A stretch of 64,000 nucleotides of DNA, taken from assembly GCA_963785325.1 (NCBI GenBank), contig CAWAVC010000025.1:202051-266050 (forward strand), read 5' to 3'. Positions 17,181-60,665 of this stretch are shown here, piece after piece. The DNA comes from an uncultured Bacteroidales bacterium. Lineage in GTDB: Bacteria; Bacteroidota; Bacteroidia; Bacteroidales; FEN-979. Both the position numbers and the translations under genes were made by a program. Numbering within the stretch: the stretch's first letter is position 1; every line of letters starts with the position of its first letter. The notes beneath the pieces are model-generated. The model did no database searches, was not told the origin of the DNA, and saw only the letters and a list, made by a program, of their open reading frames with translations.

Positions 17181-17197
17181 TCGTATCTTTGCAGATT

Positions 17198-17797
17198 GGG
17201 TACTGGGTACTGGGTTCTGGGTTCTGGGTACTGGGTTCTGGGTACTGGGTTCTGGGTTCTGGGTTCTGGGTACTGGGTACTGGGTACTGGGTACTGGGTT
17301 CTGGGTTCTGGGTTCTGGGTTCTGGGTACTGGGTACTGGGTACTGGGTACTGGGTTCTGGGTACTGGGTTCTGGGTACTGGGTTCTGGGTACTGGGTTCT
17401 GGGTACTGGGTTCTGGGTACTGGGTTCTGGGTACTGGGTTCTGGGTACTGGGTTCTGGGTACTGGGTTCTGGGTACTGGGTTCTGGGTACTGGGTTCTGG
17501 GTACTGGGTTCTGGGTTCTGGGTTCTGGGTTCTGGGTACTGGGTACTGGGTACTGGGTACTGGGTACTGGGTTCTGGGTACTGGGTTCTGGGTACTGGGT
17601 ACTGGGTACTGGGTTCTGGGTTCTGGGTACTGGGTACTGGGTTCTGGGTACTGGGTTCTGGGTACTGGGTTCTGGGTACTGGGTTCTGGGTACTGGGTTC
17701 TGGGTTCTGGGTTCTGGGTACTGGGTACTGGGTACTGGGTTCTGGGTACTGGGTTCTGGGTACTGGGTTCTAGGTACTGGGTACGGGGTACGGGGTA
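17198..17797 (+). repeat. heptamer array, about 85 units, binary mix of GGGTACT and GGGTTCT
   Basis: Direct reading. Long stretches alternate strictly (14-bp period) and others form blocks of 4+4. The array is open in six frames, which produces the artefactual ORFs at 17135-17803. Confidence 0.97.
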
Positions 17798-20390: not shown

Positions 20391-20512
20391 AAGATGAAAA
20401 ATAGAGGACGAGCGGATAAGCGGATAAGCAGACGGACGAAGTGGTGAGTAGTGAACGGAGGATGGAAGATGGAGAATGAAGAATGAAGAATGAAAAATGA
20501 AGAATGAAAAAT
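20378..20512 (+). repeat. mosaic array: AATGAAA, AAGCGGAT, GGATGGA, GAATGAA
   Basis: Direct reading. Overlaps the moaC stop codon and the next start codon. Confidence 0.85.
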
Positions 20513-21434
20513 GAAAGAGTTAAAAGTTATTTCGGTCAATGTGTCTGAGACTAAGGGGACGATAAAGCACCCTGTTGAGTCAATTCATTTGACTGATATG
20601 GGGGTGGAGCATGATGCTCATTCGGGAGCCTGGAACAGGCAGGTGAGTTTGCTTGGGATTGAAAGCATCCGGAAGTATGAAAAAGTAACAAGCAGGAAAG
20701 TATCTCACGGTGAATTTGCTGAAAATATTACGACGGAGGGATTTGATCTTTGGAAAATGAACCCCCTAGATAGGTTCACCGTTGGGGATGCCGAACTTGA
20801 AGTGACCCAGATCGGTAAAGAATGTCATGGGACTTCGTGCGCAATTTTTAAGGAAACCGGAGATTGTATAATGCCTAAAGAAGGGATTTTCTGCCGTGTA
20901 ATCCGGCCGGGAGTGATTCGACCGAGTGATGTACTCGAATATCATCCGAAAGTTTTTTTAATCCGGATCATTACTCTCAGTGACCGTGCCAGTCGCGGTG
21001 AATATGAGGACAAGTCGGGTCCTCTAATCAAAGAACTCCTCATGGAATTTTTTACCAGTCACCATTTACAATTCACAATTCACAATTCACTAATCCCTGA
21101 TGATCCTGATCAACTTAGAGACTTTATGAACCGGGCAAAGCAGGATAAAACTGATTTTGTTTTCACTACCGGGGGTACAGGAATCGGTACTAAAGATCTC
21201 ACTCCGGAAGTTGTTAAACCTTTGCTGGATAAGGAAATCCCGGGTATTATGGAGTTGATCCGCACCAAGTATGGGGCAGAAAAACCGAATGCTCTTGTCA
21301 GCCGGAGTATAGCAGGTGTCATGAGGGAAAGTCTTGTTTTCACGTTACCAGGTAGTGTGAAGGCTGTAAATGAATACATGACCGAAATCTTACCCACCAT
21401 CAATCACCTGGTATTTCATGCTTCATGGCATTGA
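20511..21434 (+). CDS. MOSC domain fused to a MogA/MoaB-type molybdopterin adenylyltransferase domain
   Basis: N-terminal half has a MOSC-like beta barrel (ENITTEG...GDAELEVTQIGKECH). C-terminal half has ITLSDRASRGEYEDKSGP...TTGGTGIGTKDLTPE. An in-frame 3x ACAATTC array lies at 21068-21090. Confidence 0.75.
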   Translation: MKELKVISVNVSETKGTIKHPVESIHLTDMGVEHDAHSGAWNRQVSLLGIESIRKYEKVTSRKVSHGEFAENITTEGFDLWKMNPLDRFTVGDAELEVTQIGKECHGTSCAIFKETGDCIMPKEGIFCRVIRPGVIRPSDVLEYHPKVFLIRIITLSDRASRGEYEDKSGPLIKELLMEFFTSHHLQFTIHNSLIPDDPDQLRDFMNRAKQDKTDFVFTTGGTGIGTKDLTPEVVKPLLDKEIPGIMELIRTKYGAEKPNALVSRSIAGVMRESLVFTLPGSVKAVNEYMTEILPTINHLVFHASWH

Positions 21435-30459: not shown

Positions 30460-31017
30460 ATGCGAAAACTGAAAACTTCAGAAATGAACCGCCTGACTAT
30501 TGACGAATTCAAGTCGTCGGCAAAGGCGCCCTTGATCATTGTGCTTGACAATATCCGCAGCCAGAATAATGTAGGATCGGTTTTTCGCACTGCCGATGCT
30601 TTCAGGGTCGAAGCCATCTATCTCTGTGGTATAACAGCTACGCCACCGCACAGGGAAATTAACAAAACAGCTCTGGGTGCAACAGATTCCGTAAGCTGGA
30701 AATATTTCCCTGAAACATCCGTCGCCCTTAAATCCCTCCATAATGAAGGGTATTGCGTTATCGGTGTCGAGCAAACAAATACCAGTCTTCCTCTGCATCT
30801 TTTTCATCCTGACAAAGAGAAAAAATATGCTCTTGTTTTTGGAAATGAAGTCAACGGACTCGATGAATGTCTGATCCCTTTCTTTGATGATTGCGTTGAG
30901 ATCCCCCAATATGGGACGAAACATTCGCTGAATATTTCCGTTGCGGCAGGAATTGTGATCTGGGACGTGTTTGTCAAACTTGATCCAAGCGGGAAAATGG
31001 TGAGAGGTGAGAGGTAA
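30460..31017 (+). CDS. TrmH/SpoU-family RNA 2'-O-methyltransferase
   Basis: NVGSVFRTADAF, ALVFGNEVNGL and SLNISVAAGIVIW motifs. The last codons and the stop lie in a GGTGAGA array. Confidence 0.8.
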   Translation: MRKLKTSEMNRLTIDEFKSSAKAPLIIVLDNIRSQNNVGSVFRTADAFRVEAIYLCGITATPPHREINKTALGATDSVSWKYFPETSVALKSLHNEGYCVIGVEQTNTSLPLHLFHPDKEKKYALVFGNEVNGLDECLIPFFDDCVEIPQYGTKHSLNISVAAGIVIWDVFVKLDPSGKMVRGER

Positions 31018-31290
31018 ATGGGTACTGGGTACTGGGTTCTGGGTTCTGGGTTCTGGGTACTGGGTTCTGGGTACTGGGTTCTGGGTTCTGGGTTCTGGGT
31101 TCTGGGTTCTGGGTTCTGGGTTCTGGGTTCTGGGTACTGGGTTCTGGGTTCTGGGTTCTGGGCACTGGGCACTGGGCAAAAAAGAAATGGCAAAATGGCA
31201 AAAATAGTGAATGGTGAGAGGTGAATGGTGAATAGTGAGTAGTGAGTAGTGAGTAGTGAATGGTGAGTAGTGAAAGGTGGGGGGGGTGAA
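30999..31290 (+). repeat. mosaic array: GGTGAGA x2, GGGTWCT x about 20, GGGCACT, AAATGGC, then GGTGAAT/AGTGAGT
   Basis: Direct reading. Confidence 0.95.
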
Positions 31291-36727: not shown

Positions 36728-37215
36728 GGGGTACTGGGTACTAGGCACTGGGTACTGGGTACTGGGTACTGGGTACTGGGTACTAGGTACTAGGCAACTG
36801 GGTACTAGGTACTGGGTACTGGGTACTAGGCACTGGGTACTGGGTACTGGGTACTAGGCAACTGGGTACTAGGTACTGGGTACTGGGTACTGGGTACTGG
36901 GTACTGGGTACTGGGTACTAGGCAACTGGGTACTAGGCACTGGGTACTAGGCAACTGGGTACTAGGCACTGGGTACTGGGTACTAGGTACTAGGCACTGG
37001 GTACTGGGTACTAGGTACTAGGCACTGGGTACTGGGTACTAGGCAACTGGGTACTAGGCACTGGGTACTGGGTACTAGGCAACTGGGTACTGGGTACTAG
37101 GTACTGGGTACTAGGCACTGGGTACTGGGTACTGGGTACTGGGTACTAGGCACTGGGTACTGGGTACTAGGTACTGGGTACTATGCACTGGGTACTAGGC
37201 AACTGGGTACTGGGA
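36728..37215 (+). repeat. heptamer array, about 68 units: GGGTACT, AGGTACT, AGGCACT and the 8-mer AGGCAACT
   Basis: Direct reading. This array has its own private variant set. Its 3' edge supplies the complement of the stop codon of the minus-strand gene. Confidence 0.97.
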
Positions 37216-38230: not shown

Positions 38231-38616
38231 TGGTTCTGGGTATTGGGTACTGGGTTCTGGGTACTGGGTTCTGGGTTCTGGGTTCTGGGTACTGGGTACT
38301 GGGTATTGGGTACTGGGTACTGGGTACTGGGTTCTGGGTACTGGGTACTGGGTTCTGGGTACTGGGTTTTGGGTACTGGGTACTGGGTACTGGGTACTGG
38401 GTACTAGGTACTGGGTACTGGGTTCTGGGTTCTGGGTTCTGGGTTCTGGGTACTGGGCTCTGGGTACTGGGTTCTGGGTTCTGGGTTCTGGGTACTAGGT
38501 ACTGGGTACTGGGTACTGGGTACTGGGTTCTGGGTTCTGGGTTCTGGGTTCTGGGTACTGGGTTTTGGGTACTGGGTACTGGACTTTGCCTAGTACCCAG
38601 TACTTAGTACCTAGTG
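38231..38616 (+). repeat. heptamer array GGGTTCT/GGGTACT/GGGTATT/GGGTTTT, ending in a short inverted segment (38590-38616)
   Basis: Direct reading. The array fills the whole gap between the nifJ stop and the start codon of the DHOD-like gene. The terminal inverted part pairs with the adjacent units (about a 14-bp stem). Confidence 0.97.
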
Positions 38617-41600
38617 CTATTTTGAAAATACCATTTCTGATAGTCGTTTGTAGTTCGCGTAACGCCATTTTGCATTTTCTTCTGCTGCTTTGAAGAGGAT
38701 GTCGGCTTCTTCAGGGAACATCTTTTTTAGCGAGGTATAACGGACTTCGCCATCAAGAAATGGCTGGAATTTAGTCCAATCGGGTTCTTTTGAGTCGAGG
38801 GTGAATGGATTTTTTCCTTCTATTTCGTTGAGTGGGTTGTACCGGTAAAGATGCCAGTAGCCTGCCTGGACGGCGCGGTCCATTTCGTCCTGGGTCTTTC
38901 CCATTCCTGCGCGCATTCCGTGATTGATACAGGGGGCATACGCGATAAGGATGGAAGGACCGGGATAGGCTTCGGCTTCTTTCATAGCCCGGAAAAGCTG
39001 GCTATTGTTGGCGCCCATGGCAACCTGTGCAACATATACATATCCGTAGGTCATGGCCATGGCACCCAGGTCTTTTTTTCTGACCTTCTTGCCGGAAGCC
39101 GCAAATTTAGCTACAGCGCCCTCCGGAGTAGATTTTGATGCCTGTCCGCCCGTATTTGAATAGACTTCGGTATCGAGCACGAGAATGTTGACATCTTCAT
39201 CCTGGGCGATCACATGATCGAGACCGCCATAGCCTATATCATAAGCCCAGCCGTCGCCTCCAAAGATCCAGATGGATTTTTTTACGAGGTACTGTTTCAG
39301 GTCAAGGATATCTTTTGCCAGCGGGTTCTTTTCTTTTGCCAGCAGGGGAATGATCTTAGAGGCTGCAGCCTTTGATTTTTCCGGATCATCTTTTCCATCC
39401 ATCCATTCCCGGAAGGCATCCAGAAGCTCGATAGACATCATATTTTCTTTTATGGCCTCTGTCATCTTCTGTGTTATTCGTTTTCTCAGGTTGCGCACGC
39501 CAACTGCCATTCCAAAGCCATATTCTGAATTGTCTTCAAACAATGAATTTGCCCATGCCGGTCCTTGTCCTTCACGATTCTTTGTGTATGGAGTAAATGG
39601 GGCAGTTCCACCATAGATTGAGGAACATCCTGTGGCGTTGGCAACCATCATACGTTCGCCAAAGAGCTGAGTAATCAGTTTTATATAAGGAGTTTCACCG
39701 CAACCAGAACAGGCGCCTGAGAATTCAAAGAGCGGCTGTACAAACTGGCTGTTCTTAAAAGTTCTCAAACGTGGGGCGACATCCGGTTTGTAAGTAACTT
39801 TCGAAATGAGGTAATCCCAGTTCACGGTTTCTTTCATCTGCGATTCCAGTGGTTTCATTTCCAGCGCTTTGATCTTGGCAGAACAAACATCGATGCAATT
39901 GCCACAGCCTGTGCAGTCGAGCACTGTGACCTGTATCCTGTACTCAAGTCCGGCCAATTCTTTTCCTATTGCTTTCAGGGTAACCATGTCTGACGGTGCA
40001 TTTTTTTTCTCCTCAGGATTGAGCAGAAAAGGACGGATAGCAGCGTGAGGACAGACATAGGCACATTGGTTACACTGAATACAATTTTCAGGGATCCATT
40101 CAGGAACGGTAACGGCGATGCCTCTCTTCTCCAGTTGTGTCATTCCAACCGGGAAGGTACCATCTTCGCGTCCGAGGAATGCGCTAACGGGAATATCGTC
40201 GCCTTCAAATTTATTGACCTTATCGAAAACCTGTTTGACAAATGCTGAACGGTTGGGATCGTCAATCTCAGGTTTAATTTCTATATTGGCCCACTCGGCC
40301 GGAACGGGAATTTCTTCAACTTCTCCTCCCCTGTCGATAGCCATGTTGTTCATATTAATAATATCTTCCCCTTTTCTTCCATAAGTCTTCTTTATGGCAT
40401 ATTTCATTTCTTTCACTGCCATTTCGTAAGGGATTATATTGGCCAGACGGAAGAAGGTCGATTGCATGATGGTGTTTGTCCGGTTCCCAAGGCCTATCTC
40501 CACGGCGATCTTGGTGGCATCGATAATAAAAAAGCTGATTTTGTGTATGGCAAGATATTTCTTCATATGATCGGGAAGCCGTTCTTTAGTTTCTTCTGCG
40601 TTCCAGATACTGTTCAGCAGGAAAGTGCCCCCGTCCTTCAGTCCTTTCAGCATATCATATTTCTCCAGATAAGCCGGAACATGACAAGCCACGAAATCAG
40701 GAGTAATAACCAGGTAAGGCGCGCGGATAGGCCTGTCGCCAAAACGAAGGTGAGATACCGTGATTCCTCCCGACTTTTTGGAGTCGTAGGCGAAATAAGC
40801 CTGTGCATATTTATCGGTCGATTCGCCGATGATTTTGATCGAATTCTTATTGGCGCCCACCGTTCCGTCGGAACCGATGCCAAAGAATTTTGCCGAGAAG
40901 GTGCCGGGCTGATCAATGCTGACTTCCGGAAGAAGCGGTAATGAATGGAAGGTGACATCATCGACAATACCGATGGTAAAATGATCTTTCGGCTCTTTGG
41001 CTTTGAGGTTGTCAAATACGGAAATGATCTGTGAGGGGGTAGTATCTTTTGAACTTAATCCATAACGGCCGGCATAAATCATTGGTCTGTTTTCCCTGTC
41101 GTAGAACAGGTCGCGGATATCAAGGTAGAGCGGATCACCATTGGCTCCGGGCTCTTTCGTACGGTCGAGCACCGTGATCCTTTTAACTGACGAAGGAAGT
41201 ACCTTGAAGAAATATTTTGCGGAGAAGGGTCTGTACAGATGTACCGAGATCAGGCCGACTTTTTCTCCTTTTTCAATCATGTGATCGATCACGTCCTTTA
41301 TAGTATCGGTCACAGAGCCCATTGCAATGATAATGTTTTCGGCATCCGGGGCACCATAATAGGTGAAAGGATGATATTCCCTGCCGGTAAGCTTTGTGAT
41401 CTGCTGCATATAACTTTCAACGATATCGGCAACCGGCTCATAGAAACGGTTCACGGCTTCTTTTGCCTGGAAGAAGATATCCGGGTTCTGGGCAGTACCG
41501 CGGGTTACAGGATGTTCGGGGTTGAGAGCTCTGTCGCGGAATTCCTGTAAAGCCTTGTAATCGATCAGCCCAGCCATGTCTTCATTGGAGAAGGCTTCAA

Positions 41601-42153
41601 TTTTCTGGATCTCGTGGGAGGAACGGAAGCCGTCAAAAAAATGAAGAAAAGGAATGCGTGAAGTGATGGCGCTGAGGTGAGCTATTCCTGCCAGATCCAT
41701 GATTTCCTGAACGCTGCCGCTGGCCAGCATGGCAAAACCGGTTTGCCGGGTTGCATAGATATCTGAATGATCTCCAAAGATCGACAGTGCATGGGCAGCA
41801 ACTGTCCGTGCACTAACGTGGAATACACCTGGAAGTAATTCACCTGCAATCTTATACATATTCGGGATCATCAGCAAGAGTCCCTGGGAAGCGGTAAACG
41901 TGGTAGTCAATGAACCCGACTGAAGAGAGCCATGAACGGCGCCAGCAGCGCCAGCTTCCGACTGCATTTCGACAACTTTTACTTCATCACCGAAAATGTT
42001 CTTTCTCCCATGAGCAGCCCATTCGTCGACATTTTCGGCCATATTTGAAGAGGGGGTTATCGGGTAAATTGCCGCCACTTCACTAAACATATAGGCCATA
42101 TGAGATGCGGCCTGGTTTCCATCGCAGGTGATGAAATTTTTTTTCTTTTCCAT
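38617..42153 (-). CDS. nifJ: pyruvate:ferredoxin (flavodoxin) oxidoreductase
   Basis: 1178 aa. Two ferredoxin-type CxxCxxCxxxCP motifs (CIQCNQCAYVCP, CTGCGNCIDVC) and a TPP-binding region GGDGWAYDIGYGG. Confidence 0.95.
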   Translation of the reverse strand: MEKKKNFITCDGNQAASHMAYMFSEVAAIYPITPSSNMAENVDEWAAHGRKNIFGDEVKVVEMQSEAGAAGAVHGSLQSGSLTTTFTASQGLLLMIPNMYKIAGELLPGVFHVSARTVAAHALSIFGDHSDIYATRQTGFAMLASGSVQEIMDLAGIAHLSAITSRIPFLHFFDGFRSSHEIQKIEAFSNEDMAGLIDYKALQEFRDRALNPEHPVTRGTAQNPDIFFQAKEAVNRFYEPVADIVESYMQQITKLTGREYHPFTYYGAPDAENIIIAMGSVTDTIKDVIDHMIEKGEKVGLISVHLYRPFSAKYFFKVLPSSVKRITVLDRTKEPGANGDPLYLDIRDLFYDRENRPMIYAGRYGLSSKDTTPSQIISVFDNLKAKEPKDHFTIGIVDDVTFHSLPLLPEVSIDQPGTFSAKFFGIGSDGTVGANKNSIKIIGESTDKYAQAYFAYDSKKSGGITVSHLRFGDRPIRAPYLVITPDFVACHVPAYLEKYDMLKGLKDGGTFLLNSIWNAEETKERLPDHMKKYLAIHKISFFIIDATKIAVEIGLGNRTNTIMQSTFFRLANIIPYEMAVKEMKYAIKKTYGRKGEDIINMNNMAIDRGGEVEEIPVPAEWANIEIKPEIDDPNRSAFVKQVFDKVNKFEGDDIPVSAFLGREDGTFPVGMTQLEKRGIAVTVPEWIPENCIQCNQCAYVCPHAAIRPFLLNPEEKKNAPSDMVTLKAIGKELAGLEYRIQVTVLDCTGCGNCIDVCSAKIKALEMKPLESQMKETVNWDYLISKVTYKPDVAPRLRTFKNSQFVQPLFEFSGACSGCGETPYIKLITQLFGERMMVANATGCSSIYGGTAPFTPYTKNREGQGPAWANSLFEDNSEYGFGMAVGVRNLRKRITQKMTEAIKENMMSIELLDAFREWMDGKDDPEKSKAAASKIIPLLAKEKNPLAKDILDLKQYLVKKSIWIFGGDGWAYDIGYGGLDHVIAQDEDVNILVLDTEVYSNTGGQASKSTPEGAVAKFAASGKKVRKKDLGAMAMTYGYVYVAQVAMGANNSQLFRAMKEAEAYPGPSILIAYAPCINHGMRAGMGKTQDEMDRAVQAGYWHLYRYNPLNEIEGKNPFTLDSKEPDWTKFQPFLDGEVRYTSLKKMFPEEADILFKAAEENAKWRYANYKRLSEMVFSK

Positions 42154-44560: not shown

Positions 44561-44590
44561 GATTAAAGTTTTGTGTAAAGGTACTATTTT

Positions 44591-44707
44591 ACTAGGTACT
44601 GGGTACTAGGTACTGGGTACTAGGTTCTGGGCACTGGGTACTGGGTGCTCTGGGTACTGGGTACTCTAGGTACTGGGTACTGGGTACTGGGTGCTGGGTA
44701 CTGGGTT
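44591..44707 (+). repeat. heptamer array GGGTACT/AGGTACT/GGGTGCT (5' arm of cassette D)
   Basis: Direct reading. Confidence 0.95.
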
Positions 44708-44765
44708 ATTAAATAAAAAATTCGTATTACTTTTTTGATTTTAGCCGATTAAGTTAATAAAAACC

Positions 44766-45140
44766 ATGAGCTATAAAAATCTTGAAATCTGGAAACTATC
44801 CAATGAACTGGTAAAAGAAATTCATCTGATGACAATAAATAAGCTACCTGGTTTCGAATTGTATGAAACAGGAAGCCAAATAAGGCGATCTAGTAAATCT
44901 GTGAAATCAAACATTGTTGAAGGCTATGGCAGACGAATATATAAACAAGAATATGTTCATTTTCTGATTATTGCAATTGCATCAAATGACGAAACGGTTG
45001 ATCATTTGGAAACGTTGTACATTACAGGTTCTTTAAAAGATGAGGTGTTATATCTTTCACTCACGTCAAAATATGAAAAACTCGGAAAAATGATTAATTC
45101 ATATATTGAAGCTGTAAAAAATGATTACAAAAAAAGATAA
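44766..45140 (+). CDS. four-helix-bundle protein (23S rRNA intervening-sequence protein / Avd-like family), divergent copy D
   Basis: LEIWKLSNELVKEIH...SQIRRSSKSVKSNIVEGYGR...FLIIAIASNDE has the family signature (W..a..l, Q..RAa.Si..NIaEG, a.gS..E). Confidence 0.8.
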   Translation: MSYKNLEIWKLSNELVKEIHLMTINKLPGFELYETGSQIRRSSKSVKSNIVEGYGRRIYKQEYVHFLIIAIASNDETVDHLETLYITGSLKDEVLYLSLTSKYEKLGKMINSYIEAVKNDYKKR

Positions 45141-45160
45141 TACCCAAGAACATAGAATCG

Positions 45161-45246
45161 AGCACCCAATACCCAGTACCTAGAGTACCCAGTACCCAGT
45201 ACCTAGTACCCAGAGTACCCAGTACCCAGAGCACCCAGTACCTAAC
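45161..45246 (-). repeat. inverted heptamer array (AGTACCC on +), 3' arm of cassette D
   Basis: AGTACCCAGTACCTAGTACCC is the perfect complement of GGGTACTAGGTACTGGGTACT in the 5' arm. Confidence 0.95.
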
Positions 45247-45252
45247 ACCTGA

Positions 45253-45284
45253 TTTGCTATTTAGGTATTTTGATACTACCTTTG
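45253..45284 (+). promoter_or_regulatory. Bacteroidota-type promoter TTTG-N20-TACCTTTG
   Basis: TTTG at 45253-45256 and TACCTTTG at 45277-45284, 23 nt upstream of the start codon. Confidence 0.55.
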
Positions 45285-45306: not shown

Positions 45307-46853
45307 ATGAGTTTACGTCAAAAAAGAAATGACCTTAAAAAAAGAATGCAGGAAGCATTCAAAGGAGGTGGCGAGAAGGCTACCGAGAAACAAAAGGCAT
45401 CCGGGAAGATGACCGCCCGTGAGCGGATCGTCGAATTGCTCGATGCCGATTCGTTTCATGAGTACGATCTTTTTGTCAAGCATGCAGGGGTGGATTTCGA
45501 CATGGACAAAAAATATCTTCCGGGCGATGGGGTTATCACCGGCACCGGATCTATCGATTCACATCCTGTTTGTGTTTTCGCACAGGACTTCACCGTAGCG
45601 GGAGGATCTTTGGGTTATATGCATGCCAAGAAGATCGGCAAGATCATGGATCAGGCGATGAAGATGAAAGTGCCGCTCATCGGGATCAACGATTCCGGGG
45701 GCGCCCGTATCCAGGAAGGAGTAAATTCACTGGCCGGTTATGGCGAGATCTTTTACCGTAACACTCAGGCCTCCGGCGTCATCCCACAGATCTCGGTAAT
45801 CCTTGGTCCCTGTGCCGGCGGAGCAGTATACTCACCGGCCCTGACTGATTTTGTTTTTGTGGTGGACAAGATCTCGAAGATGTTCATCACCGGGCCCGAA
45901 GTGATCAAGACTGTTCTCGGCGAAGAGATCTCCATGGAAGATCTTGGAGGCGCACGGGTTCATGCTGAGATCACAGGAAATGCCCATTTCTTCGCAGAGA
46001 GTGAAATAGAATGTTTCGAACAGATCAAGAGACTGGTCAGCTTTATTCCCTGGAACAACGAAAAAAGAGCCGATACCTTTCCGAGTAAAGCCCCGAAATC
46101 AAGGCAGTACAAGATCGACCAGATCTTCCCGTCGATCAAATGCAGGCCTATGATGTCAGGGATATCATAAAAGCTATCTGCGACGACTCAGATTTCTTTG
46201 AAGTTCATGAACACTGGGCAGCCAATATCGTGGTCGGCTTTGCAAGGCTCGATGGACAGACCGTAGGGTTTGTCGCCAACCAGCCCATGGTGCTTGCGGG
46301 AGTGCTCGATGTCGATTCATCAGATAAAGCCGCTCGTTTTATCAGGTTCTGCGATGCATTCAATATTCCACTTGTGACCTTTGTCGACCTTCCCGGTTAC
46401 CTTCCAGGCGTTGACCAGGAATATGCCGGTGTTATCCGTCACGGTGCCAAAGTACTTTATGCTTATTCCGAAGCTACCGTTCCAAAGATGACTGTGATTC
46501 TCCGTAAGGCTTATGGAGGAGGATATATCGCTATGTGTTCCCATCACCTTAAAGCTGATTTTGTGTTTGCCTGGCCTACCGCAGAAATTGCAGTCATGGG
46601 ACCTGAGGGAGCAGCCAATATCATCTTCAGGAATGAAATAAAAGCTGCGGAGAATCCTGAAGAGACCCGTAAAAAACTGATCGAGGATTATCGTAGTAAA
46701 TTTGCAAACCCCTATGTAGCTGCAGCTTATGGATATGTTGATGCAGTAATTTTACCGTCGGAAACCCGTGGTTTTCTTATCCATTCACTCAGCATAGCTG
46801 CCAACAAGGGTGAGGCAAGGCCAAAGAAGAAACATGGAATTCCTCCATTTTAA
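45307..46853 (+). pseudogene. acyl-CoA carboxylase carboxyltransferase (PccB / methylmalonyl-CoA decarboxylase alpha / transcarboxylase 12S type), split by a 1-nt indel (or a sequencing error)
   Basis: GKMTARERI, DFTVAGGSLG and SVILGPCAGGAVYSPA in ORF1. YDVRDII, VGFVANQP and AYGGGYIAM in ORF2. The frames overlap at 46089-46170, with a CCCC run at 46091-46094. Confidence 0.85.
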
Positions 46854-46968
46854 ATGGTGAATGGTGAAAAAGGTACTGGGTACTAGGTACTGGGTGCTGG
46901 GTACTGGGTGCTGGGTACTGGGTACTAGGTACTGGGTGCTGGGTTCTGGGTACTGGGTACTGGGTTTT
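46854..46968 (+). repeat. mosaic array GGTGAAT x2, then GGGTACT/GGGTGCT/AGGTACT
   Basis: Direct reading. Starts at the stop codon. Confidence 0.95.
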
Positions 46969-50363: not shown

Positions 50364-50468
50364 TGAAAGAGTGACAGAAACAGAGTCACAAAGTCACAAA
50401 GTCACAAAGTCACAAAGCGGACGGGCGACAAGCGGACAATTTGTAATTACAAATTACGAATTACGAAA
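50363..50468 (+). repeat. mosaic array: AAGTCACA x4, CAAGCGGA, AATTACG units
   Basis: Direct reading. Confidence 0.9.
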
Positions 50469-50700
50469 ACATTTTAGATTAACGATTACAATGTCCTTAT
50501 AATATTCCCGTTAATGTTATGAAATATTAATATTTGGATTTCTGCATTGTTTTTTTATTTCTTACTTTTGAAATCGTGACGCGAAACAATGACCCACCCC
50601 CTGCCCCTCCCCCAAGAGGGAGGGAGAGATGAAGGGAGAATATTGCGACGCGAATATCGAAATTCGTAATTTCAATTGTTATTCGTAATTCGTAATTTTT
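50440..50700. repeat. MITE-like palindromic element with AATTACG-array arms and a central C/G hairpin
   Basis: AATTACGAATTACGAA at 50452-50467 is perfectly complementary to 50682-50697. The centre carries CCCCTCCCCCAAGAGGGAGGGA (about 50604-50625). No ORF. Confidence 0.6.
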
Positions 50701-53015: not shown

Positions 53016-53535
53016 ATGGAGAACTTGCAGCATTGGTATGCCGTTTACACGAAACCCAGGAGTGAAAAGAAATTAGCCGAACGGTTGAGCGATCAGGGTA
53101 TCGAGGCCTATCTTCCCATGCGCAAAACCCTGAAACAATGGTCGGACCGGAAGAAGATGGTTAGTGAGCCGCTGATTTCTTCTTATGTTTTCGTTAATAT
53201 TTTCCAGAAAGATTATCTTGAAGTACTCAAGAAATGCCCGAAGCGCGTGAGGTATATGTGGTTCTGCGGCAAGCCTGCTGTTATTCCTTCAAACCGAGAT
53301 CCAGTCATTGAAGCTTATCATAAAACCAGGACCTTGATATCCAACGTGTTTCGTCATCTTTTCCCACAAGGTACCCGTGTGCAGGTGGTCTCGGTCATTT
53401 GAAGGGACTTACGGCGAACTGCTGAACCATGCCGGGAAACATAGAGTCATGATCAGGCTCGATAATCTGGATAAGGCGCTACTGCTGACGATTTCACCAC
53501 GGCTGTTGGAGGAAGTGAATGTGAGTAGTGAATAG
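53016..53535 (+). pseudogene. UpxY-family (NusG-like) transcription antiterminator, disrupted by at least one and probably three frameshifts
   Basis: The NGN domain WYAVYTKPRSEKKLAERL...SYVFV is intact. EIQSLKLIIKPG, FPQGTRVQVVS and FEGTYGELLNHAGKHRVMIRL (KOW region) lie in alternating frames between 53294 and 53400. Confidence 0.7.
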
Positions 53536-53592: not shown

Positions 53593-53816
53593 TAATTACT
53601 CATTTTTGTGTGCTAAGTTTTGGTATTTTCAGAGATGGGACTGGACAGGGCGAAGCTGTAAATGGTGAAAAGTGAGAGGTGAGAGGTGAGTGAGGGTGTG
53701 GGTGAGTGGAAAATGGTTAGTAGTGAATGTGGTCATGGAGAGTGGAGAATGAAATTTCAATAAAAAATCAAGATTATTTTGTATTTTTGAAAACATGTTA
53801 CAATAAATCACCTGGT

Positions 53817-54020
53817 ATGACAACCATTGTTATTAAGCCAAAAACAAAAACAGAAAGGGATTTTATTACCCGTCTGTTAAAAAAAATGAATATTGAAGTT
53901 GACCTGATTGAAGAACCTGAACCTAATTATAAAACCCGAAAAGCAATGGAAGAGGTTTATCATAAAAGGGGCACCAAGGTCAAGGATTCCAAAGAACTCT
54001 TTAAAGAGCTTGGAATCTGA
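53817..54020 (+). CDS. DUF2683-like antitoxin candidate
   Basis: MTTIVIKPKTKTERDFITRLLKKMNIEVDLIEE... The stop overlaps the start of the toxin remnant (ATGA). Confidence 0.45.
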   Translation: MTTIVIKPKTKTERDFITRLLKKMNIEVDLIEEPEPNYKTRKAMEEVYHKRGTKVKDSKELFKELGI

Positions 54021-54139
54021 TGTTTCAACTGGTCTACACCAATAGATTCAAAAAAGACATAAAACTTCTTCAGAAAAGAGGCTTTGACCTGAACTTGCTA
54101 AAAATCGTCATCTCCATTCTGGAAGAAAATAGTGAGTAG
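54020..54139 (+). pseudogene. YafQ/RelE-type toxin remnant (first ~37 codons only), cut off by the repeat arm of cassette A
   Basis: MFQLVYTNRFKKDIKLLQKRGFDLNLLKIVISILEEN matches the N-terminus of YafQ-type toxins (about 90 aa expected). The ORF then runs into AGTGAGT units and a TAG. Confidence 0.55.
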
Positions 54140-54161
54140 TGAGTGGTGAATAGTGAATGGT
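54131..54161 (+). repeat. 5' arm of cassette A (AGTGAGT, GGTGAAT, AGTGAAT)
   Basis: GTGGTGAATAGTGAATGGT at 54143-54161 is the perfect reverse complement of 54579-54597. Confidence 0.95.
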
Positions 54162-54177
54162 AAAAAAATGAATTTTC

Positions 54178-54524
54178 ATGGATCATAAAGATCTGGAGGT
54201 TTGGAAAGAATCAATGCTTCTTGCAAAGGAGGTATATTTTTTGACAAAAGGGTTTCCCAAAGAAGAAATATATGGGATTACCTCCCAAATCAGAAGAGCA
54301 TCGGTATCAGTTCCATCAAATATCGCTGAAGGCGCTGCAAGAAGTAGCGATAAAGAATTCATTCAATTTCTTTATATTTCCCTTGGTTCTCTCTCTGAAT
54401 TGGAAACTCAATTATTGTTATCCCGGGATTTGGAATTCATGAGGAATCCAGATATCTTACCAAAAATCGAATCGACAAAAAGAAAATTTTAGGTCTGATC
54501 AAATATCTGAAAAACAAAATTTAG
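54178..54524 (+). pseudogene. four-helix-bundle protein (23S rRNA IVS protein / Avd-like), copy A, with a 1-nt indel in an A-run near the 3' end (or a sequencing error)
   Basis: About 85% aa identity to copies B and C. After ...IESTK the tail KKILGLIKYLKNKI continues in another frame. The junction is at 54478-54490. Confidence 0.8.
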
Positions 54525-54548
54525 AAATAATGTAGTCGAATTCCCGCA

Positions 54549-54597
54549 CCCACACACACTACTAACTATTCACCTCTCACCATTCACTATTCACCAC
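54549..54597 (-). repeat. 3' arm of cassette A (inverted GGTGAAT/GGTGAGA units)
   Basis: See the 5' arm: 19-bp perfect complementarity. Confidence 0.95.
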
Positions 54598-55134
54598 TTG
54601 TTAGATACCCTTATCACAAGCAAGACGCGGATTAAGCTGCTGCTGAGGTTTTTCCTGAACAGCAACACTACTTCTTATCTGCGAAACCTGGAGACGGATT
54701 TCGACGAATCTACCAACTCCATCAGGATCGAGCTGAACAGGTTTGAGAAAGCCGGTTTGCTGGTTTCCGGGAAAGAACAGAACCGGAAGGTTTATAAGGC
54801 CAATACCAACCATCCCCTATTTCCCGATATCAACAATATCCTGAGGAAGTACATCGGGGTCGATCAGATCATCGATAAGGTGCTCGGACACCTGGGATCT
54901 GTAAATAAGGCATATATCACGGGTGATCTTGCGAGAGGAAAGGACGCCGACAGCATCAACCTCTACCTCATCGGCACTGAACTCGATCTCGACTACCTCA
55001 AACATCTCATAAAGAAGACTCAAACGCTGATACACCGCGGTATCAAGTATAAACTGCTGGACGAAGGGGAAGAAGCGGAATTTCTCAAAGAGAATCCAGA
55101 TGCATTTGTTATTTGGAAGGGGAATGGTGAATAG
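54598..55134 (+). CDS. winged-helix transcriptional regulator with a C-terminal nucleotidyltransferase-like domain
   Basis: MLDTLITSKTRIKLLLRFFLN...YLRNLE...IRIELNRFEKAGLL (ArsR-like wHTH). The TTG start directly abuts the repeat arm. Confidence 0.55.
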   Translation: MLDTLITSKTRIKLLLRFFLNSNTTSYLRNLETDFDESTNSIRIELNRFEKAGLLVSGKEQNRKVYKANTNHPLFPDINNILRKYIGVDQIIDKVLGHLGSVNKAYITGDLARGKDADSINLYLIGTELDLDYLKHLIKKTQTLIHRGIKYKLLDEGEEAEFLKENPDAFVIWKGNGE

Positions 55135-55238
55135 TGAATGGTGAGAGGTGAGAGGAGAAAAAGTGAGAGGTGAGAGGTGAGAGGAAAAAAAGTGAGAGGT
55201 GAGAGGTGAGAAGACGTGAGATGTGAGAAGTGAGAAGT
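55122..55238 (+). repeat. 5' arm of cassette B (GGTGAAT, then GGTGAGA blocks, GATGTGA, AGTGAGA)
   Basis: GTGAGAGGTGAGAGGTGAGA at 55192-55211 is complementary to part of 55628-55655. Confidence 0.95.
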
Positions 55239-55255
55239 AAAAAAAAAAGAATTTT

Positions 55256-55609
55256 ATGAATCATAAAGAGTTGGAGGTTTGGAAAGAGTCAATGATTCTT
55301 GCAAGGGAAGCTTACCTTTTGACTAAAGGTTTTCCTAAGGAAGAATTGTATGGAATTACTTCACAGATAAGAAGAGCATCGGTTTCTATACCATCAAATA
55401 TTGCAGAAGGTGCTGCACGAAGCAGTGATAAAGAATTCATTCAATTTCTATATATATCTCTGGGGTCACTCTCTGAACTTGAAACCCAATTCTTATTATC
55501 AAAAGATTTGAAATTTATTGAAAACCTTGAGGTTTTACATAAAATCGAATCGATAAAAATGAAACTTCTCGGCTTGATAAAATACCTGAAAAACAAAAAG
55601 AAAAAATAA
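55256..55609 (+). CDS. four-helix-bundle protein (23S rRNA IVS protein / Avd-like), copy B
   Basis: LEVWKESMILAREAY...SQIRRASVSIPSNIAEGAARSSDKEFIQFLYISLGSLSELETQ, 117 aa. Confidence 0.85.
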   Translation: MNHKELEVWKESMILAREAYLLTKGFPKEELYGITSQIRRASVSIPSNIAEGAARSSDKEFIQFLYISLGSLSELETQFLLSKDLKFIENLEVLHKIESIKMKLLGLIKYLKNKKKK

Positions 55610-55627
55610 CATCATACCTGTATTTAC

Positions 55628-55655
55628 ATCTCACCTCTCACCTCTCACCTCTCAC
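55628..55655 (-). repeat. 3' arm of cassette B (inverted GGTGAGA x4), followed by an AAACTTA array to 55710
   Basis: Direct reading. Confidence 0.95.
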
Positions 55656-55710
55656 AGCTTAACACTTAAAACTTAAAACTTAAAACTAATAACACTTAAA
55701 ACTAATACTT

Positions 55711-56413
55711 TTGAAAGCAGTAATTCTGGCGGGGGGTAAGGGAACGAGGTTGAAACCTTATACTACCGTTATTCCGAAGCCATTGGTGCCGGTTGGGGAG
55801 ACTTCGATTATCGAGATCCTGATCAGGCAACTTAAAAAGTCGGGAATTGAAGAGGTGGATGTGTGCCTGGGCCACTTTGCCGAAATCATCATGGCCTTCC
55901 TCGGAGATGGCAGCAAATGGGGAATAAAGATCAGGTATTCCGTTGAAACAAAGCTTATGGGGACAGTTGCTCCTCATTAAACTGCTCAGCGACCTGCCTG
56001 AGAATTTCCTGGTCATGAATGGCGATCTGCTGACAAATCTTGACTTTATGAATTTGTATGCTACCCATCTTAATAATGATTCATTGCTGACCGTTTCAAC
56101 GTATCAGCGGACGACAAAAATTGATTTTGGCGTTATCGAAACTGAAGGACAATCTGAGAAAGTTACCGGTTTTAAAGAAAAACCTGAATATAACTTCGAA
56201 GTCAGCATGGGGGTTTATGTGATGAACAGGAAGATCCTTGACTTTGTTCCCGATGACCAGCCTTTTGGGTTTGACGACCTGATGATCACACTGATTCAGA
56301 AGAAACAACCTATCTCAATCTACCGCTTCAATGGTTATTGGCTCGATATCGGGAGGCCGGATGATTATGAGAAGGCGAATGAGGATGTGGGAAAGGTGAG
56401 AGGTGAGAGGTGA
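55711..56413 (+). pseudogene. sugar-phosphate nucleotidyltransferase, split by a 1-nt indel (or a sequencing error)
   Basis: ILAGGKGTRLKPYT..IPKPLVPV in ORF1 and LVMNGDLLTN...WLDIGRPDDY in ORF2. The junction is at 55969-55977. TTG start. The stop lies inside a GGTGAGA unit. Confidence 0.8.
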
Positions 56414-56417
56414 GAAG
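56394..56417 (+). repeat. 5' arm of cassette C (GGTGAGA x3)
   Basis: Direct reading. Confidence 0.9.
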
Positions 56418-56434
56418 AAAAAAAATAAAAAAGT

Positions 56435-56788
56435 ATGAATCATAAAGATTTGGAAGTTTGGAAGGAATCGATGCTTCTTGCAAAGGAAGTATATCTTGTG
56501 ACAAAAGGTTTTCCTAAGGAAGAATTGTATGGAATTACTTCACAGATAAGAAGAGCATCGGTTTCTGTACCATCAAATATTGCAGAAGGCGCTGCACGAA
56601 GCAGTGATAAAGAGTTTATTCAATTTCTATATATCTCTCTTGGTTCCCTTTCTGAACTTGAAACCCAATTATTATTATCCCGGGATTTGAAATTTATTGA
56701 AAATCTGGATTTTTTACCAAAAATCGAATCGGTAAAAATGAAACTTATCGGCTTGATAAAATATCTTAAAAACAAAATGAAAAAATAA
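56435..56788 (+). CDS. four-helix-bundle protein (23S rRNA IVS protein / Avd-like), copy C
   Basis: 117 aa, about 90% identical to copy B. The nucleotide tract 56507-56566 is identical to 55328-55387. Confidence 0.85.
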   Translation: MNHKDLEVWKESMLLAKEVYLVTKGFPKEELYGITSQIRRASVSVPSNIAEGAARSSDKEFIQFLYISLGSLSELETQLLLSRDLKFIENLDFLPKIESVKMKLIGLIKYLKNKMKK

Positions 56789-56806
56789 CATCATAGTTGC
56801 ACTTAC

Positions 56807-56834
56807 ATCTCACCTCTCACTTCTCACTTCTCAC
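56807..56834 (-). repeat. 3' arm of cassette C (inverted GGTGAGA/AGTGAGA units)
   Basis: Direct reading. At least 13 bp is perfectly complementary to the 5' arm. Confidence 0.9.
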
Positions 56835-56844
56835 AATTTAAAAC

Positions 56845-57916
56845 TTGAAGATCGTAACGGTTATCGGGGCAAGGCCGCAGTTTATTAAGGCGGCGACTTA
56901 TGTCACGGTTACTTTGCATGTATCCTGATGTTGAAGAGATCCTCGTGCATACAGGGCAGCATTATGATCCGAATATGTCGGATATCTTTTTCGAGGAGCT
57001 GGATATTCCGCATCCTGATTTTAACCTGGAGGTCGGCTCAGGTTCTCACGCTGTTCAGACCGGTAAAATGCTCAGGGGTATAGAGACTATCCTTATGGAT
57101 AAAAAACCAGATTGGACACTGGTGTACGGTGATACAAATTCGACCCTTGCCGGTGCGCTTGCTTCCACGAAACTCAATATCCCCGTGGCTCATGTTGAGG
57201 CAGGGCTTCGATCCTTTAACCGGAAGATGCCTGAAGAGATCAACCGGATCGTGACAGACCATATTTCCGACCTCCTCTTCGCCCCTACCCCCACGGCTAT
57301 GGTCAACCTTGAAAAGGAAGGGCTGCTCGGATCAAGCTTCCAAACCGGAGATGTGATGTTCGATAGTACGCTATTTTACAAAGAGAAAATACTCAGGAAT
57401 CCTGACACGTATAAGACTAATGGACTTCCGGATAAATACCTGCTGGCTACGGTGCATCGTGCCGAAAATACCGATAACATCAATAACCTGAGAAACATTT
57501 TCAAGGCATTCTCTGAATCCCGGGAGACCATTGTGTTGCCCATCCATCCACGAACCCGGAAAAGCATCGCCAATATCATTCAGATTCCTGAAAATGTTCA
57601 CCTCATCGATCCCGTCGGATACCTTCAGATGCTTTATCTGACGATACATTCAGTCAAAGTCCTTACTGATTCAGGAGGCTTGCAGAAAGAGGCTTATTTT
57701 CTTGGTAAACAATGTATTACCCTGCGTACGGAAACGGAATGGCTGGAGACAGTTCACGATAATTGGAATATCGTTACAGGAACAGACCCGGATAAGATTC
57801 TGGGGGCTATACGGTCGGAAGTTCCTGATAAGCCTCAACATTCATCGTTTGGAGATGGACATGCGGCGGAGGCGATCGTTGAGAAGATAAAATGGGTACT
57901 GGGTACTGGGTACTAG
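56845..57916 (+). pseudogene. wecB: UDP-N-acetylglucosamine 2-epimerase with a frameshift after codon ~17 (or a sequencing error)
   Basis: (TTG)KIVTVIGARPQFIKAAT lies in one frame and SRLLCMYPDVEEILVHTGQHYDPNMS... in the next. There is one extra nt at 56896-56902 relative to the paralogous fragment at 62984. The tail WVLGTGY and the stop lie in a GGGTACT array. Confidence 0.8.
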
Positions 57917-58158
57917 GTACTGGGTACTGGGTACTGGGTACTAGGTACTGGGTACTGGGTACTGGGTACTGGGTACTAGGTACTGCAGACAAAGCGACGT
58001 GGTGAACTGGTGACAGAGTGATGTGGTGAACTGGTGAGAAGTGAATGGTGAGAGGTGAATAGTGAGTGGTGAATAGTGAGTGGTGAATAGTGAATGGTGA
58101 ATGGGAAAAAGTAATAAAGTGACAAAGTAACAAAGTAACAAAGTAACAGAGTAACAAA
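57894..58158 (+). repeat. mosaic array: GGGTACT x about 12, GGTGAACT/GGTGACAG, GGTGAAT/AGTGAGT, AAGTAACA octamers
   Basis: Direct reading. Confidence 0.95.
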
Positions 58159-59317: not shown

Positions 59318-60665
59318 CAGGCGGACGAAAAAAAGTCACAAAGTGATAGAGTGATAGAGTGACAAAGTAAAAAAGCGGACAAGCGGACAAGCGGACGGAC
59401 GAGGTGGTGAGAAGTGAGAGGTGAGAAGTGAATGAAAAATTAATAAAAAGTCACAGAATTCACAAAGTAAAAAAGCGGACAAGCGGACAAGCGGACAAGC
59501 GGACGGACGAGGTGGTGAGAAGTGAGAGGTGAGAAGTGAATGAAAAATTAATAAAAAGTCACAGAATTCACAAAGTAAAAAAGCGGACAGGTGAACAAGC
59601 GGACAAGCGGACAAGCGGACAAGCGGACAAGCGGACGGACGAGGTGGTGAGAAGTGAGAGGTGAGAAGTGAATGAAAAATTAATAAAAAGTCACAGAATT
59701 CACAAAGTAAAAAAGCGGACAGGTGAACAAGCGGACAAGCGGACAAGCGGACAAGCGGACAAGCGGACGGGCGAGGTGGTGAGAAGTGAGAGGTGAGAAG
59801 TGAATGAAAAATTAATAAAAAGTCACAGAATTCACAAAGTAAAAAAGCGGACAGGTGAACAAGCGGACAAGCGGACAAGCGGACAAGCGGACGGGCGAGG
59901 TGGTGAGAAGTGAGAGGTGAGAAGTGAATGAAAAATTAATAAAAAGTCACAGAATTCACAAAGTAAAAAAGCGGACAGGTGAACAAGCGGACAAGCGGAC
60001 AAGCGGACAAGCGGACAAGCGGACAAGCGGACGGGCGAGGTGGTGAGAAGTGAGAGGTGAGAAGTGAATGAAAAATTAATAAAAAGTCACAGAATTCACA
60101 AAGTAAAAAAGCGGACAAGCGGACAAGCGGACAAGCGGACGGACGAGGTGGTGAGAAGTGAGAGGTGAGAAGTGAATGAAAAATTAATAAAAAGTCACAG
60201 AATTCACAAAGTAAAAAAGCGGACAGGTGAACAAGCGGACAAGCGGACAAGCGGACAAGCGGACGGGCGAGGTGGTGAGAAGTGAGAGGTGAGAAGTGAA
60301 TGAAAAATTAATAAAAAGTCACAGAATTCACAAAGTAAAAAAGCGGACAGGTGAACAAGCGGACAAGCGGACAAGCGGACAAGCGGACAAGCGGACAAGC
60401 GGACAAGCGGACAAGCGGACGGACGAGGTGGTGAGAAGTGAGAGGTGAGAAGTGAATGAAAAATTAATAAAAAGTCACAGAATTCACAAAGTAAAAAAGC
60501 GGACAAGCGGACAAGCGGACAAGCGGACAAGCGGACAAGCGGACGGGCGAGGTGGTGAGAAGTGAGAGGTGAGAAGTGAATGAAAAATTAATAAAAAGTC
60601 ACAGAATTCACAAAGTCAGAGTCACAAAGTAAAAAAGTGACAAAGTAAGGAAGTGAGAACCTTGA
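59318..60665 (+). repeat. higher-order repeat: 10 composite units of about 108-157 bp
   Basis: Each unit has (CAAGCGGA)n with n about 3-8, with or without GGTGAAC, followed by a constant module CG(A/G)GCGAGGTGGTGAGAAGTGAGAGGTGAGAAGTGAATGAAAAATTAATAAAAAGTCACAGAATTCACAAAGTAAAAAAGCGGA. The constant module was counted 10 times. Confidence 0.95.

Follow-up and report, generated by a model that had tools for sequence, protein, structure and literature searches.

Among the systems described so far, the closest relative of the locus considered here is the intervening sequence (IVS) of the 23S rRNA of Leptospira and Coxiella burnetii, in which an open reading frame (ORF) of the PF05635 family occupies the loop of a stem made by terminal inverted repeats. 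The Coxiella element is 428 nt long, with a 28-bp terminal inverted-repeat stem in which RNase III cuts, and tandem GACAGAT heptamers of variable copy number lie just 5' of its S23p ORF, the 5' cleavage site being at the first heptamer (PMC4990558). The present analysis concerns a 64,000-nt stretch of DNA from an uncultured Bacteroidales bacterium (GenBank assembly GCA_963785325.1, contig CAWAVC010000025.1, positions 202,051 to 266,050), hereafter the window, and the PF05635 genes that it contains (copies D, A, B and C, in this order), above all copy D, each of which lies between inverted arrays of heptanucleotides. As in the IVS, a PF05635 ORF is found in the loop of a terminal-inverted-repeat stem, with tandem heptamers directly 5' of the ORF as in Coxiella, and the sizes are similar (about 430-760 nt for the IVS, about 650 nt here). 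However, the IVS is inserted in a helix of 23S rRNA (9, 25 or 45), whereas the cassettes of the window are located between, and once within, protein-coding genes; the arms are here long degenerate heptamer arrays (up to 117 nt in the window and 186 nt in the related locus L146), and several paralogous cassettes with clade-specific repeat cores are present per genome. As judged from sequence comparisons, the IVS-type cassette outside rRNA with clade-specific heptamer arms is the new part.

The first-pass annotation of this DNA had not named the IVS and had drawn an analogy with Avd, the accessory protein of diversity-generating retroelements (DGRs), which we consider the more distant relative. 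Avd is a homologous basic pentameric barrel that binds a defined RNA element (PMC10053308; bioRxiv 10.1101/2023.10.23.563531), and in the DGR RNA a duplex of the avd 3' end with a downstream spacer brackets the template (bioRxiv 10.1101/2023.10.23.563531). The likeness thus concerns a basic four-helix bundle, its assembly as a pentameric barrel and RNA binding. That copy D is itself the Avd protein of a DGR, with the repeats as part of that system, is extremely improbable: the homology of PF05635 with Avd (PMC10053308; bioRxiv 10.1101/2023.10.23.563531) would be in its favour, but the genes adjoining the four copies include no reverse transcriptase (the search for one was confined to these neighbours), no pair of template and variable repeats accompanies them, and the repeats are 7-nt arrays rather than paired near-identical segments of about 100 nt. 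A profile built from 33 family members does not reach Avd (4DWL) at E <= 0.01. Of the earlier analogy, therefore, distant homology stands and the retroelement context does not.

Arrays of heptamers are known from other bacteria, namely GGGAATC in Xanthomonas, where 70-75 convergent pairs are included, GGGGA(C/T)T in Nostoc and TAACTGA in Beggiatoaceae, Cyanobacteria and Bacteroidetes; the authors left open both what they do and how they arose, and one of them suggested a possible role for a mobile repeat-binding protein (PMC4692102; PMC4679880). Slippage, G-quadruplexes and unknown binding proteins have all been proposed (PMC4679880, PMC4692102). Such arrays resemble those of the window in being intergenic, strand-polar, often directly upstream of start codons and sometimes arranged in convergent pairs, but those studies contain no link to PF05635, whereas the arrays of the present cassettes accompany one specific gene family, with a core that follows the protein clade. 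The STRR (short tandemly repeated repetitive) sequences of cyanobacteria are further heptanucleotide tandem repeats. A similar layout is that of the RAYT transposases, whose gene is flanked by inverted cognate REP/REPIN repeats that are clade-specific and dispersed intergenically. The likeness is one of layout (inverted cognate repeats around the gene, dispersed copies, co-variation of clade and repeat) and not of membership, since the protein is here not an HUH/Y1 transposase and has no recognizable catalytic domain, and the repeats are tandem 7-mers instead of palindromic units of about 20-40 nt. Beyond the remark on Coxiella, no literature linking PF05635 to heptamer arrays was found; most subscription journals were outside the search, so that an earlier description is possible.

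Copy D (44766-45140, + strand) encodes a protein of 124 residues with an isoelectric point (pI) of 9.0, which profile searches assigned to PF05635 (23S_rRNA_IVP; E 7e-26, 90.9 bits against the Pfam cut-off of 33.8) and TIGR02436 (four helix bundle protein; E 2e-26, 92.1 bits against a cut-off of 24). Its length agrees with that of the solved members (about 110-125 residues). Copies A-C also score above the family hidden Markov model cut-off (123-128 bits), and phmmer and jackhmmer searches of all six frames revealed exactly four family members in the window, all on the + strand. The identity of the D protein with A-C is only 38-41%, as compared with about 88% among A-C (88% between B and C), and all are basic (pI 9.0-9.4). 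The profile of 33 members matches PDB entries 2GSC (E 2e-29), which is XCC0516 of Xanthomonas campestris, and 2RLD (E 5e-13), with five chains each. No nuclease or transposase domain was found in these ORFs of about 120 residues, for which Pfam and TIGR02436 returned PF05635 only.

The 5' arm of D (44590-44707, + strand) consists of some 16 degenerate units of the type (CTGGGTA/GGGTACT)n, with the G-rich strand as the coding one, as seen with Tandem Repeats Finder (period-7 array at 44590-44706, 16 copies) and by unit-by-unit inspection, and an AT-rich spacer of 58 nt (44708-44765, + strand) separates it from the start codon. The 3' arm (45160-45246, - strand; inverted array at 45160/45164-45242 in the same program) corresponds to part of the 5' arm in inverted orientation, and the inverted-repeat core pairs 44637-44695 (+ strand) with 45184-45242 over 59 nt at 95% complementarity. 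The 21-mer GGGTACTAGGTACTGGGTACT, located at 44601, occurs 16 times in the forward orientation in the window and only once, at 45191, as its reverse complement. Folding of the RNA from 44570 to 45260 yielded a terminal stem of about 75 bp around the entire ORF (z = -9.8). The irregular 9-mers GGGTGCTCT and GGGTACTCT are common to both arms with their order kept, and the arm-arm alignment reaches a score of 52, compared with 31.7 +/- 5.8 for shuffles of the units of one arm, of which 5/1000 attain 52; from the shared order of irregular units and the score above that of shuffles it is concluded that one arm is an inverted copy of the other. An identical cassette, with few single-nucleotide differences in the flanks, is found in an independent ENA assembly (ERZ25039480 contig_42077, locus L001), so that an assembly artefact can be dismissed. 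A Bacteroidetes-type promoter motif (TAnnTTTG) between 5' arm and ATG is absent from 4/4 cassettes of the window and present in 13/79 D-clade loci, which makes it uninformative. The first-pass annotation had described copy D as a divergent family member bracketed by GGGTACT-type arms, the 3' one inverted, with a 21-bp perfect complement between them, and each of these points was confirmed.

Relatives of both kinds of cassette were collected by two scans, in each of which the best 80 loci were kept, for a total of 154 non-redundant loci. The D-clade sample consists of 80 loci (41-74% identity) from one scan of GTDB species genomes, the source genome not being among them, and its hosts are Ignavibacteriales, Chitinophagaceae, Balneolaceae, Cyclobacteriaceae, Prolixibacteraceae and Verrucomicrobiota; the A-C-clade sample consists of 80 relatives from one scan of metagenome contigs, 74 of which entered the comparison of the clades. 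Flanking inverted repeats scoring >=16 surround 38/124 real ORFs and 0/379 control intervals of ORF length taken from the same loci with a shift of 1.3-2 kb (Fisher p 6e-26). Heptamer arrays, detected with thresholds that are arbitrary, are 17 times denser near the ORF (0.87 per kb up to a distance of 250 bp) than in the remaining DNA (0.05 per kb). In both clades the motif is read along the coding strand upstream of the gene and along the other strand downstream, the counts for this arrangement being 208 + 138 in the D clade and 275 + 294 in the A-C clade, as compared with 29 + 49 and 54 + 65, respectively, for the reverse one. Many loci below the strict periodicity threshold have, by eye, degenerate units of the same type. 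By including the plasmid loci discussed below, the layout recurs around PF05635 genes of Bacteroidota, Ignavibacteriota, Balneolaceae, Verrucomicrobiota and Cyanobacteriota. In a conserved locus of Balneola/Balneolaceae (L021, L025, L027, L028 and L040), two or three four-helix-bundle genes are found within 6 kb; they belong to different clades, are 30-36% identical to D and are accompanied by few arrays or inverted repeats, if any.

The first-pass annotation had proposed, from four cases, that protein clade and repeat family co-vary. An unbiased enrichment of 4-mers in the 150-nt flanks with respect to distal DNA, carried out on 80 D-clade and 74 A-C-clade loci of other organisms, returned CTGG (4.7x) and GGAT (4.4x) as top-ranking words for the D clade, in which the rarer CTAG ranks first (7.0x), and GTGA (8.8-9.4x) along with AGTG for the A-C clade. 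At least four CTGG words are present in 40/80 D-clade and 3/74 A-C-clade loci, and at least four GTGA words in 52/74 A-C-clade and 4/80 D-clade loci (Mann-Whitney p 8e-19 for the difference between clades in flank words). Where periodic arrays were detected, the CTGG/GTGA counts are 20/0 in the D clade and 2/18 in the A-C clade (Fisher p 3e-9). Logos built from one unit per locus read C-T-G-G-a-T-n for the D clade (7.7 bits) and G-T-G-A-n-n-n for the A-C clade (6.5 bits), as compared with <=4.5 bits for random heptamer sets rotated in the same way; the information is concentrated in four positions (1.4-2 bits), the other three having only 0.1-0.4 bits, among proteins that are only 50-60% identical. 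A third type of unit, TGGTCGN, is found in a low-identity subgroup (L144, L146, L151 and L157), with arms of up to 186 nt in L146. Protein distance correlates with cyclic unit distance over 67 non-redundant loci (Mantel r 0.39, reached by 0/2000 permutations), and a weaker correlation is present inside each clade. Finally, within a locus the 5' unit and the reverse-complemented 3' unit resemble each other more than they resemble the units of other loci of the same clade (p 0.0006, 0.04 and 0.008). The proposed co-variation thus extends well beyond the initial four cases, and its generalization to a family-wide pattern is strongly supported by these sequence data.

The three cassettes of the A-C clade confirm the arrangement within the window, and the GGTGAGA/GGTGAAT arms that had been reported for them were found, inverted, around all three. 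Cassette A consists of a 5' arm of GTGAGTA/GTGAATA/GTGAATG units (54128-54161, + strand), of copy A (54178-54492, + strand), truncated by a 1-nt deletion in an A-run as judged from homology to B and C that continues until approximately 54525, and of a 3' arm (54548-54598, - strand); 54142-54161 pairs with 54579-54598 at 20/20 positions. In cassette B, a (GGTGAGA)n arm (55122-55236, + strand) that ends 19 nt 5' of the start codon precedes copy B (55256-55609, + strand; 117 residues, pI 9.4), which is followed by a (TCTCACC)n arm (55624-55655, - strand), and 55163-55184 pairs with 55634-55655 at 22/22 positions. Cassette C comprises a (GGTGAGA)n arm (56388-56420, + strand) within which the upstream host ORF enters and stops, copy C (56435-56788, + strand; 117 residues) and a 3' arm (56802-56835, - strand), 56388-56420 being 82% complementary to 56803-56835 over 33 nt. 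The arms were located by Tandem Repeats Finder and inverted-arm searches, that 3' of C also by folding, and copies B and C were identified by Pfam and TIGR02436. For both B and C, folding gave a terminal stem between the two arms (z -4.8 and -5.5, respectively), that of C being about 28 bp long and present in minimum free energy and centroid folds alike. Alignment of the DNA of the three cassettes showed homology from the 5' arm to about 15 nt past the 3' arm and nothing in common outside. Because homology begins and ends with the arms, the unit of the cassette is arm, ORF and arm. The 5' arms of B and C end 17-19 nt before the start codons and the upstream host ORFs run into the arrays, so that these arms can hardly lie outside the transcript.

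Farther upstream, at 53664-53708, lies an older portion of the cassette A 5' array, cut off by an inserted toxin-antitoxin-like module (53727-54139) formed by a DUF2683-like ORF and a YafQ-type toxin truncated to profile positions 2-37 of 88. In relatives of cassette A the array directly follows the NusG-like gene with nothing inserted, and arrays may be hot spots of insertion. The 3' arm of cassette A is also complementary at 27/27 positions to the 5' arm of cassette B (54570-54596 with 55125-55151), and arms of neighbouring cassettes could, from their sequence, pair and loop out the host gene in between. With regard to the unit itself, the GAGGTGA of the A-C type was considered as a Shine-Dalgarno-like element by our own comparison with the 16S rRNA 3' end, and discarded as a general explanation because relatives use GTGAACA, GTGATTA and others.

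The window is rich in repeats, and a trivial explanation would be that the matching arrays around the four genes are an accident of the local array type. Indeed, arrays of 7- and 8-nt units make up 6.8% of it, are found in most intergenic regions and belong to a few families, which include, besides those of the cassettes, AATGAAG, AAGCGGAC, AATTACG and AAAGTCAC. By considering G-versus-C polarity, 39/47 arrays are G-rich on the + strand, independently of how the adjacent genes are oriented. However, the D-type and A-C-type families are found in inverted orientation only five times, four of which are the 3' flanks of the four-helix-bundle genes and the fifth a short hairpin at 38587-38611. Furthermore, arrays of both families are side by side in single spacers (30999-31274, 46853-46965 and 57893-58104), so that the match between gene and arm is not a regional effect. 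Outside the window such arrays are rare except by these genes, as shown by the 17-fold excess and by the controls, none of which has an inverted repeat. Coincidence is therefore about as improbable as the DGR explanation. An Rfam search of the whole window at the gathering threshold returned two tRNAs only, with no rRNA and no known RNA family for the arms.

Information on the age of the cassettes comes from their positions. Cassettes A-C head a polysaccharide-type operon with a NusG/UpxY-like gene, a gene for a 178-residue protein, NTP_transferase and Epimerase_2. The genes adjoining them are NusG-like, NTP_transferase and Epimerase_2, and those adjoining cassette D are MutS2 and a carboxyl transferase. 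A cassette is found after the NusG-like gene also in L084 and L086, with flanking proteins 57-80% identical, before the 178-residue gene in L085 and L086, and between the latter and NTP_transferase in L082; in all compared loci the 5' arm begins right behind the conserved "...GCGAAGCTGTAA" end of the NusG-like gene. The arms of all keep GTGA, and the variable positions differ by genome (GTGAGTA/GTGAATA in the window and L082, GTGAGAG in L084, GTGAACA/GTGAACG/GTGAAGG in L085 and L086). Long persistence, together with the turnover of three positions and the conservation of four, is the main argument for a core under selection and not merely inherited. A D-like gene next to a pyruvate:ferredoxin oxidoreductase homologue in L070 (Maribellus) was considered as an ortholog or empty site for D and rejected for its different orientation and spacing.

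These positions also bear on the possibility that the cassette is a mobile or invertible DNA element, with the arms as terminal inverted repeats or hairpin sites and the four-helix-bundle protein or a host enzyme as the mobility factor, in a RAYT/REP-like manner. The gene order of L082/L083 differs from that of the window (54128-57916) exactly at cassette boundaries: A, 178-residue gene, B, NTP_transferase, C and epimerase in the window; cassette, epimerase, 178-residue gene, cassette and NTP_transferase in L082. Such boundary-matched changes of order suggest recombination between cassettes and would fit mobility, as would the presence of cassettes, in either orientation, at numerous intergenic sites that have no relation to each other, some of them inside cas, ribonucleotide-reductase and polysaccharide operons, and the lack of an RNA wobble signature in the arms. 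The IVS, too, has long been suspected of mobility (PMC4990558). On the other hand, a helical bundle of 120 residues without nuclease or transposase domain is a poor candidate for a mobility factor, cassette A has remained at one position while the flanking proteins diverged to 57-80% identity, and neither target-site duplications nor pairs of empty and filled sites were identified among the compared loci. This explanation is regarded as quite unlikely.

We favour the view that copies D and A-C are free-standing counterparts of the IVS, i.e. PF05635 ORFs between inverted heptamer arrays with a protein that reads its own repeat, to which a probability of roughly one half is assigned. The cassette would be transcribed alone or within the host operon, and in the transcript the two arms would anneal to a long double-stranded RNA stem, with the ORF in its loop. 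By analogy with the IVS, the stem would be a substrate of RNase III, whose action has been demonstrated for the Coxiella and Leptospira elements (PMC4990558 for Coxiella), and formation of the stem and its cleavage would let the cassette sit within operons with little harm. The basic protein, probably a pentamer, would then read the 4-nt core every 7 nt on the single-stranded RNA or DNA of its own arms and, in addition, on many cognate arrays elsewhere in the genome, with autoregulation or stabilization and propagation of the repeats as possible effects. Since two different cores coexist in one genome, each with its own clade, and a single clade retains its core from phylum to phylum, the determinant of specificity appears to travel with the cassette; the protein being its only product, it is the likely determinant, and host factors are not, because clades with different cores share the same host. 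A model for a ring with one core per subunit is TRAP, which reads spaced triplets, and by this analogy a ring could plausibly read a core every 7 nt with each of its subunits. Extension of this reading to PF05635 proteins at large, as sequence-specific readers and possibly propagators of heptanucleotide tandem repeats, plausibly with one heptamer per pentamer subunit, is put forward only tentatively from the sequence patterns described above.

Several observations weigh against the proposed reading by the protein. The two clades were drawn from different collections, and the CTGG/GTGA labels were picked after seeing the data, yet they agree with the unbiased 4-mer scan. Approximately half of the relatives have no detectable arms, which are thus not obligatory, and in L162 (1335-2015) the arrays are direct, not inverted, with (CTAAAAG)n upstream and (CCAAAAG)n downstream. 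The Coxiella authors judged that S23p is probably not made in vivo (PMC4990558), and for the cassettes of the window binding by the protein and RNA processing are inferred. The AlphaFold2 model of copy D, built from a four-sequence alignment, is all-helical with a mean predicted local distance difference test score of only 52.6, too poor for a study of the binding surface, and was discarded together with the Foldseek comparison of this low-confidence model with the PDB, which gave nothing below E = 2. Finally, arm mismatches show no excess of G-U over A-C (133 versus 144 in 84 loci), so that there is no per-site signature of selection for pairing in the sense RNA, and DNA-level copying may be what keeps the arms similar.

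This last point would fit passive co-descent, in which an old cassette has been moved or duplicated as a unit, with arms kept complementary by DNA fold-back copying or quasi-palindrome correction and a protein that does not read them. The ordered inverted copy that forms the 3' arm of D fits copying at the DNA level equally well, A, B and C are homologous from arm to arm, and a graded correlation between protein and unit, as observed, is also predicted by plain co-descent. However, conservation is position-specific, with four positions kept and three free, even at syntenic sites where the variable positions have turned over, which disfavours co-descent, as neutral drift would wear down the seven positions equally; a polarity that is conserved across phyla also argues against it. 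Co-descent is thus considered unlikely, while being a better candidate than a mobile element, and reading of the repeat by the protein is retained as the preferred explanation.

Further cassettes were found on plasmids by a tblastn search of PLSDB with copy B, which returned 34 records, mostly cyanobacterial, of which 15 loci were examined (14 cyanobacterial and 1 of Riemerella). Short purine- or G-rich tandem repeats adjoin the gene in 15/15 of them, with an inverted complement on the opposite side in most. The units include GGGTGTA (Nostoc punctiforme and Calothrix brevissima), GGGAGTA, GGGAACA, GGTGACA, GGCAGAG, GGGAAAA, GGAGATA, GGAGTCA and AAGGTTC (Riemerella). Some cassettes are within cas operons, twice between cas6 and cas4 and once between cas10 and cmr3, and one is antisense between two ribonucleotide reductase genes; these cases (L162, L171, L173 and L164) are from plasmids of Pseudanabaena, Anabaena sp. 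90, Picosynechococcus and Nostoc edaphicum. The abbreviation '23S rRNA IVP' is among the domain names in a figure on CRISPR-associated genes (PMC10910872), which cassettes in cas operons may explain. The arrays may be taken for CRISPR-like repeats, and annotation errors are easily made with the cassettes. A CRISPR array was ruled out, as head-to-tail 7-mers without spacers are not 25-40-nt repeats with unique spacers.

Other features of the window deserve mention. At 59373-60616 a higher-order tandem repeat is found, with about nine copies of a 124-132-bp unit made of a (AAGCGGAC)n octamer run, GTGAGAA-type heptamers and an AT-rich spacer, which looks like a tandem series of array modules without a gene. 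An 'empty' hairpin at 38560-38615, directly after the stop codon of a minus-strand pyruvate:ferredoxin oxidoreductase gene (38617-42153), is formed by the end of a 350-bp GGTACTG array, an 8-nt loop and a short inverted arm (CCTAGTACCCAGTAC...). AATTACG-type inverted arms (50445-50467 and 50657-50697) surround about 190 bp of AT-rich DNA that has no four-helix-bundle ORF and holds a C-rich/G-rich hairpin, and the whole (50445-50697) may be a decayed or different cassette. TCACAAT heptamers are present at 21052-21090 within an ORF (20511-21434), close to where its MOSC and MoCF_biosynth domains meet. The (GGGTACT/GGGTTCT)n arrays (2163-2702, 17195-17768, 36729-37214, 38232-38582 and other sites) are telomere-like G3N4 repeats that formally fit a G-quadruplex. 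They hold one chromosomal orientation even between minus-strand genes, which points to an asymmetry at the DNA level or linked to replication. The G-quadruplex was rejected as the general basis of the arms because only G3-containing units such as GGGTACT fit the motif. Single frameshifts split the genes for carboxyl transferase (45307-46853), NusG/UpxY-like protein (53016-53535), NTP_transferase (55714-56413) and copy A (54178-54525), and the sister contig L001 is still more fragmented; homopolymer errors of long reads are the likely cause, with pseudogenes as the alternative.

In these cassettes three questions meet, namely the role of PF05635 proteins, the source of heptamer arrays and the reason for a period of seven, and the presence of small genes inside unrelated operons, including those of cas genes, and a clade-specific core makes the first two directly testable. 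If the protein does read its repeat, this would be the first function for the 23S-IVS/S23p family, and it would account for where the heptamer arrays of Cyanobacteria, Bacteroidota, Xanthomonas and Beggiatoaceae come from, for their strand polarity and for their patchy phylogenetic distribution. In genomes as rich in arrays as the present one, the cognate sites before many genes would then form something like a regulon.

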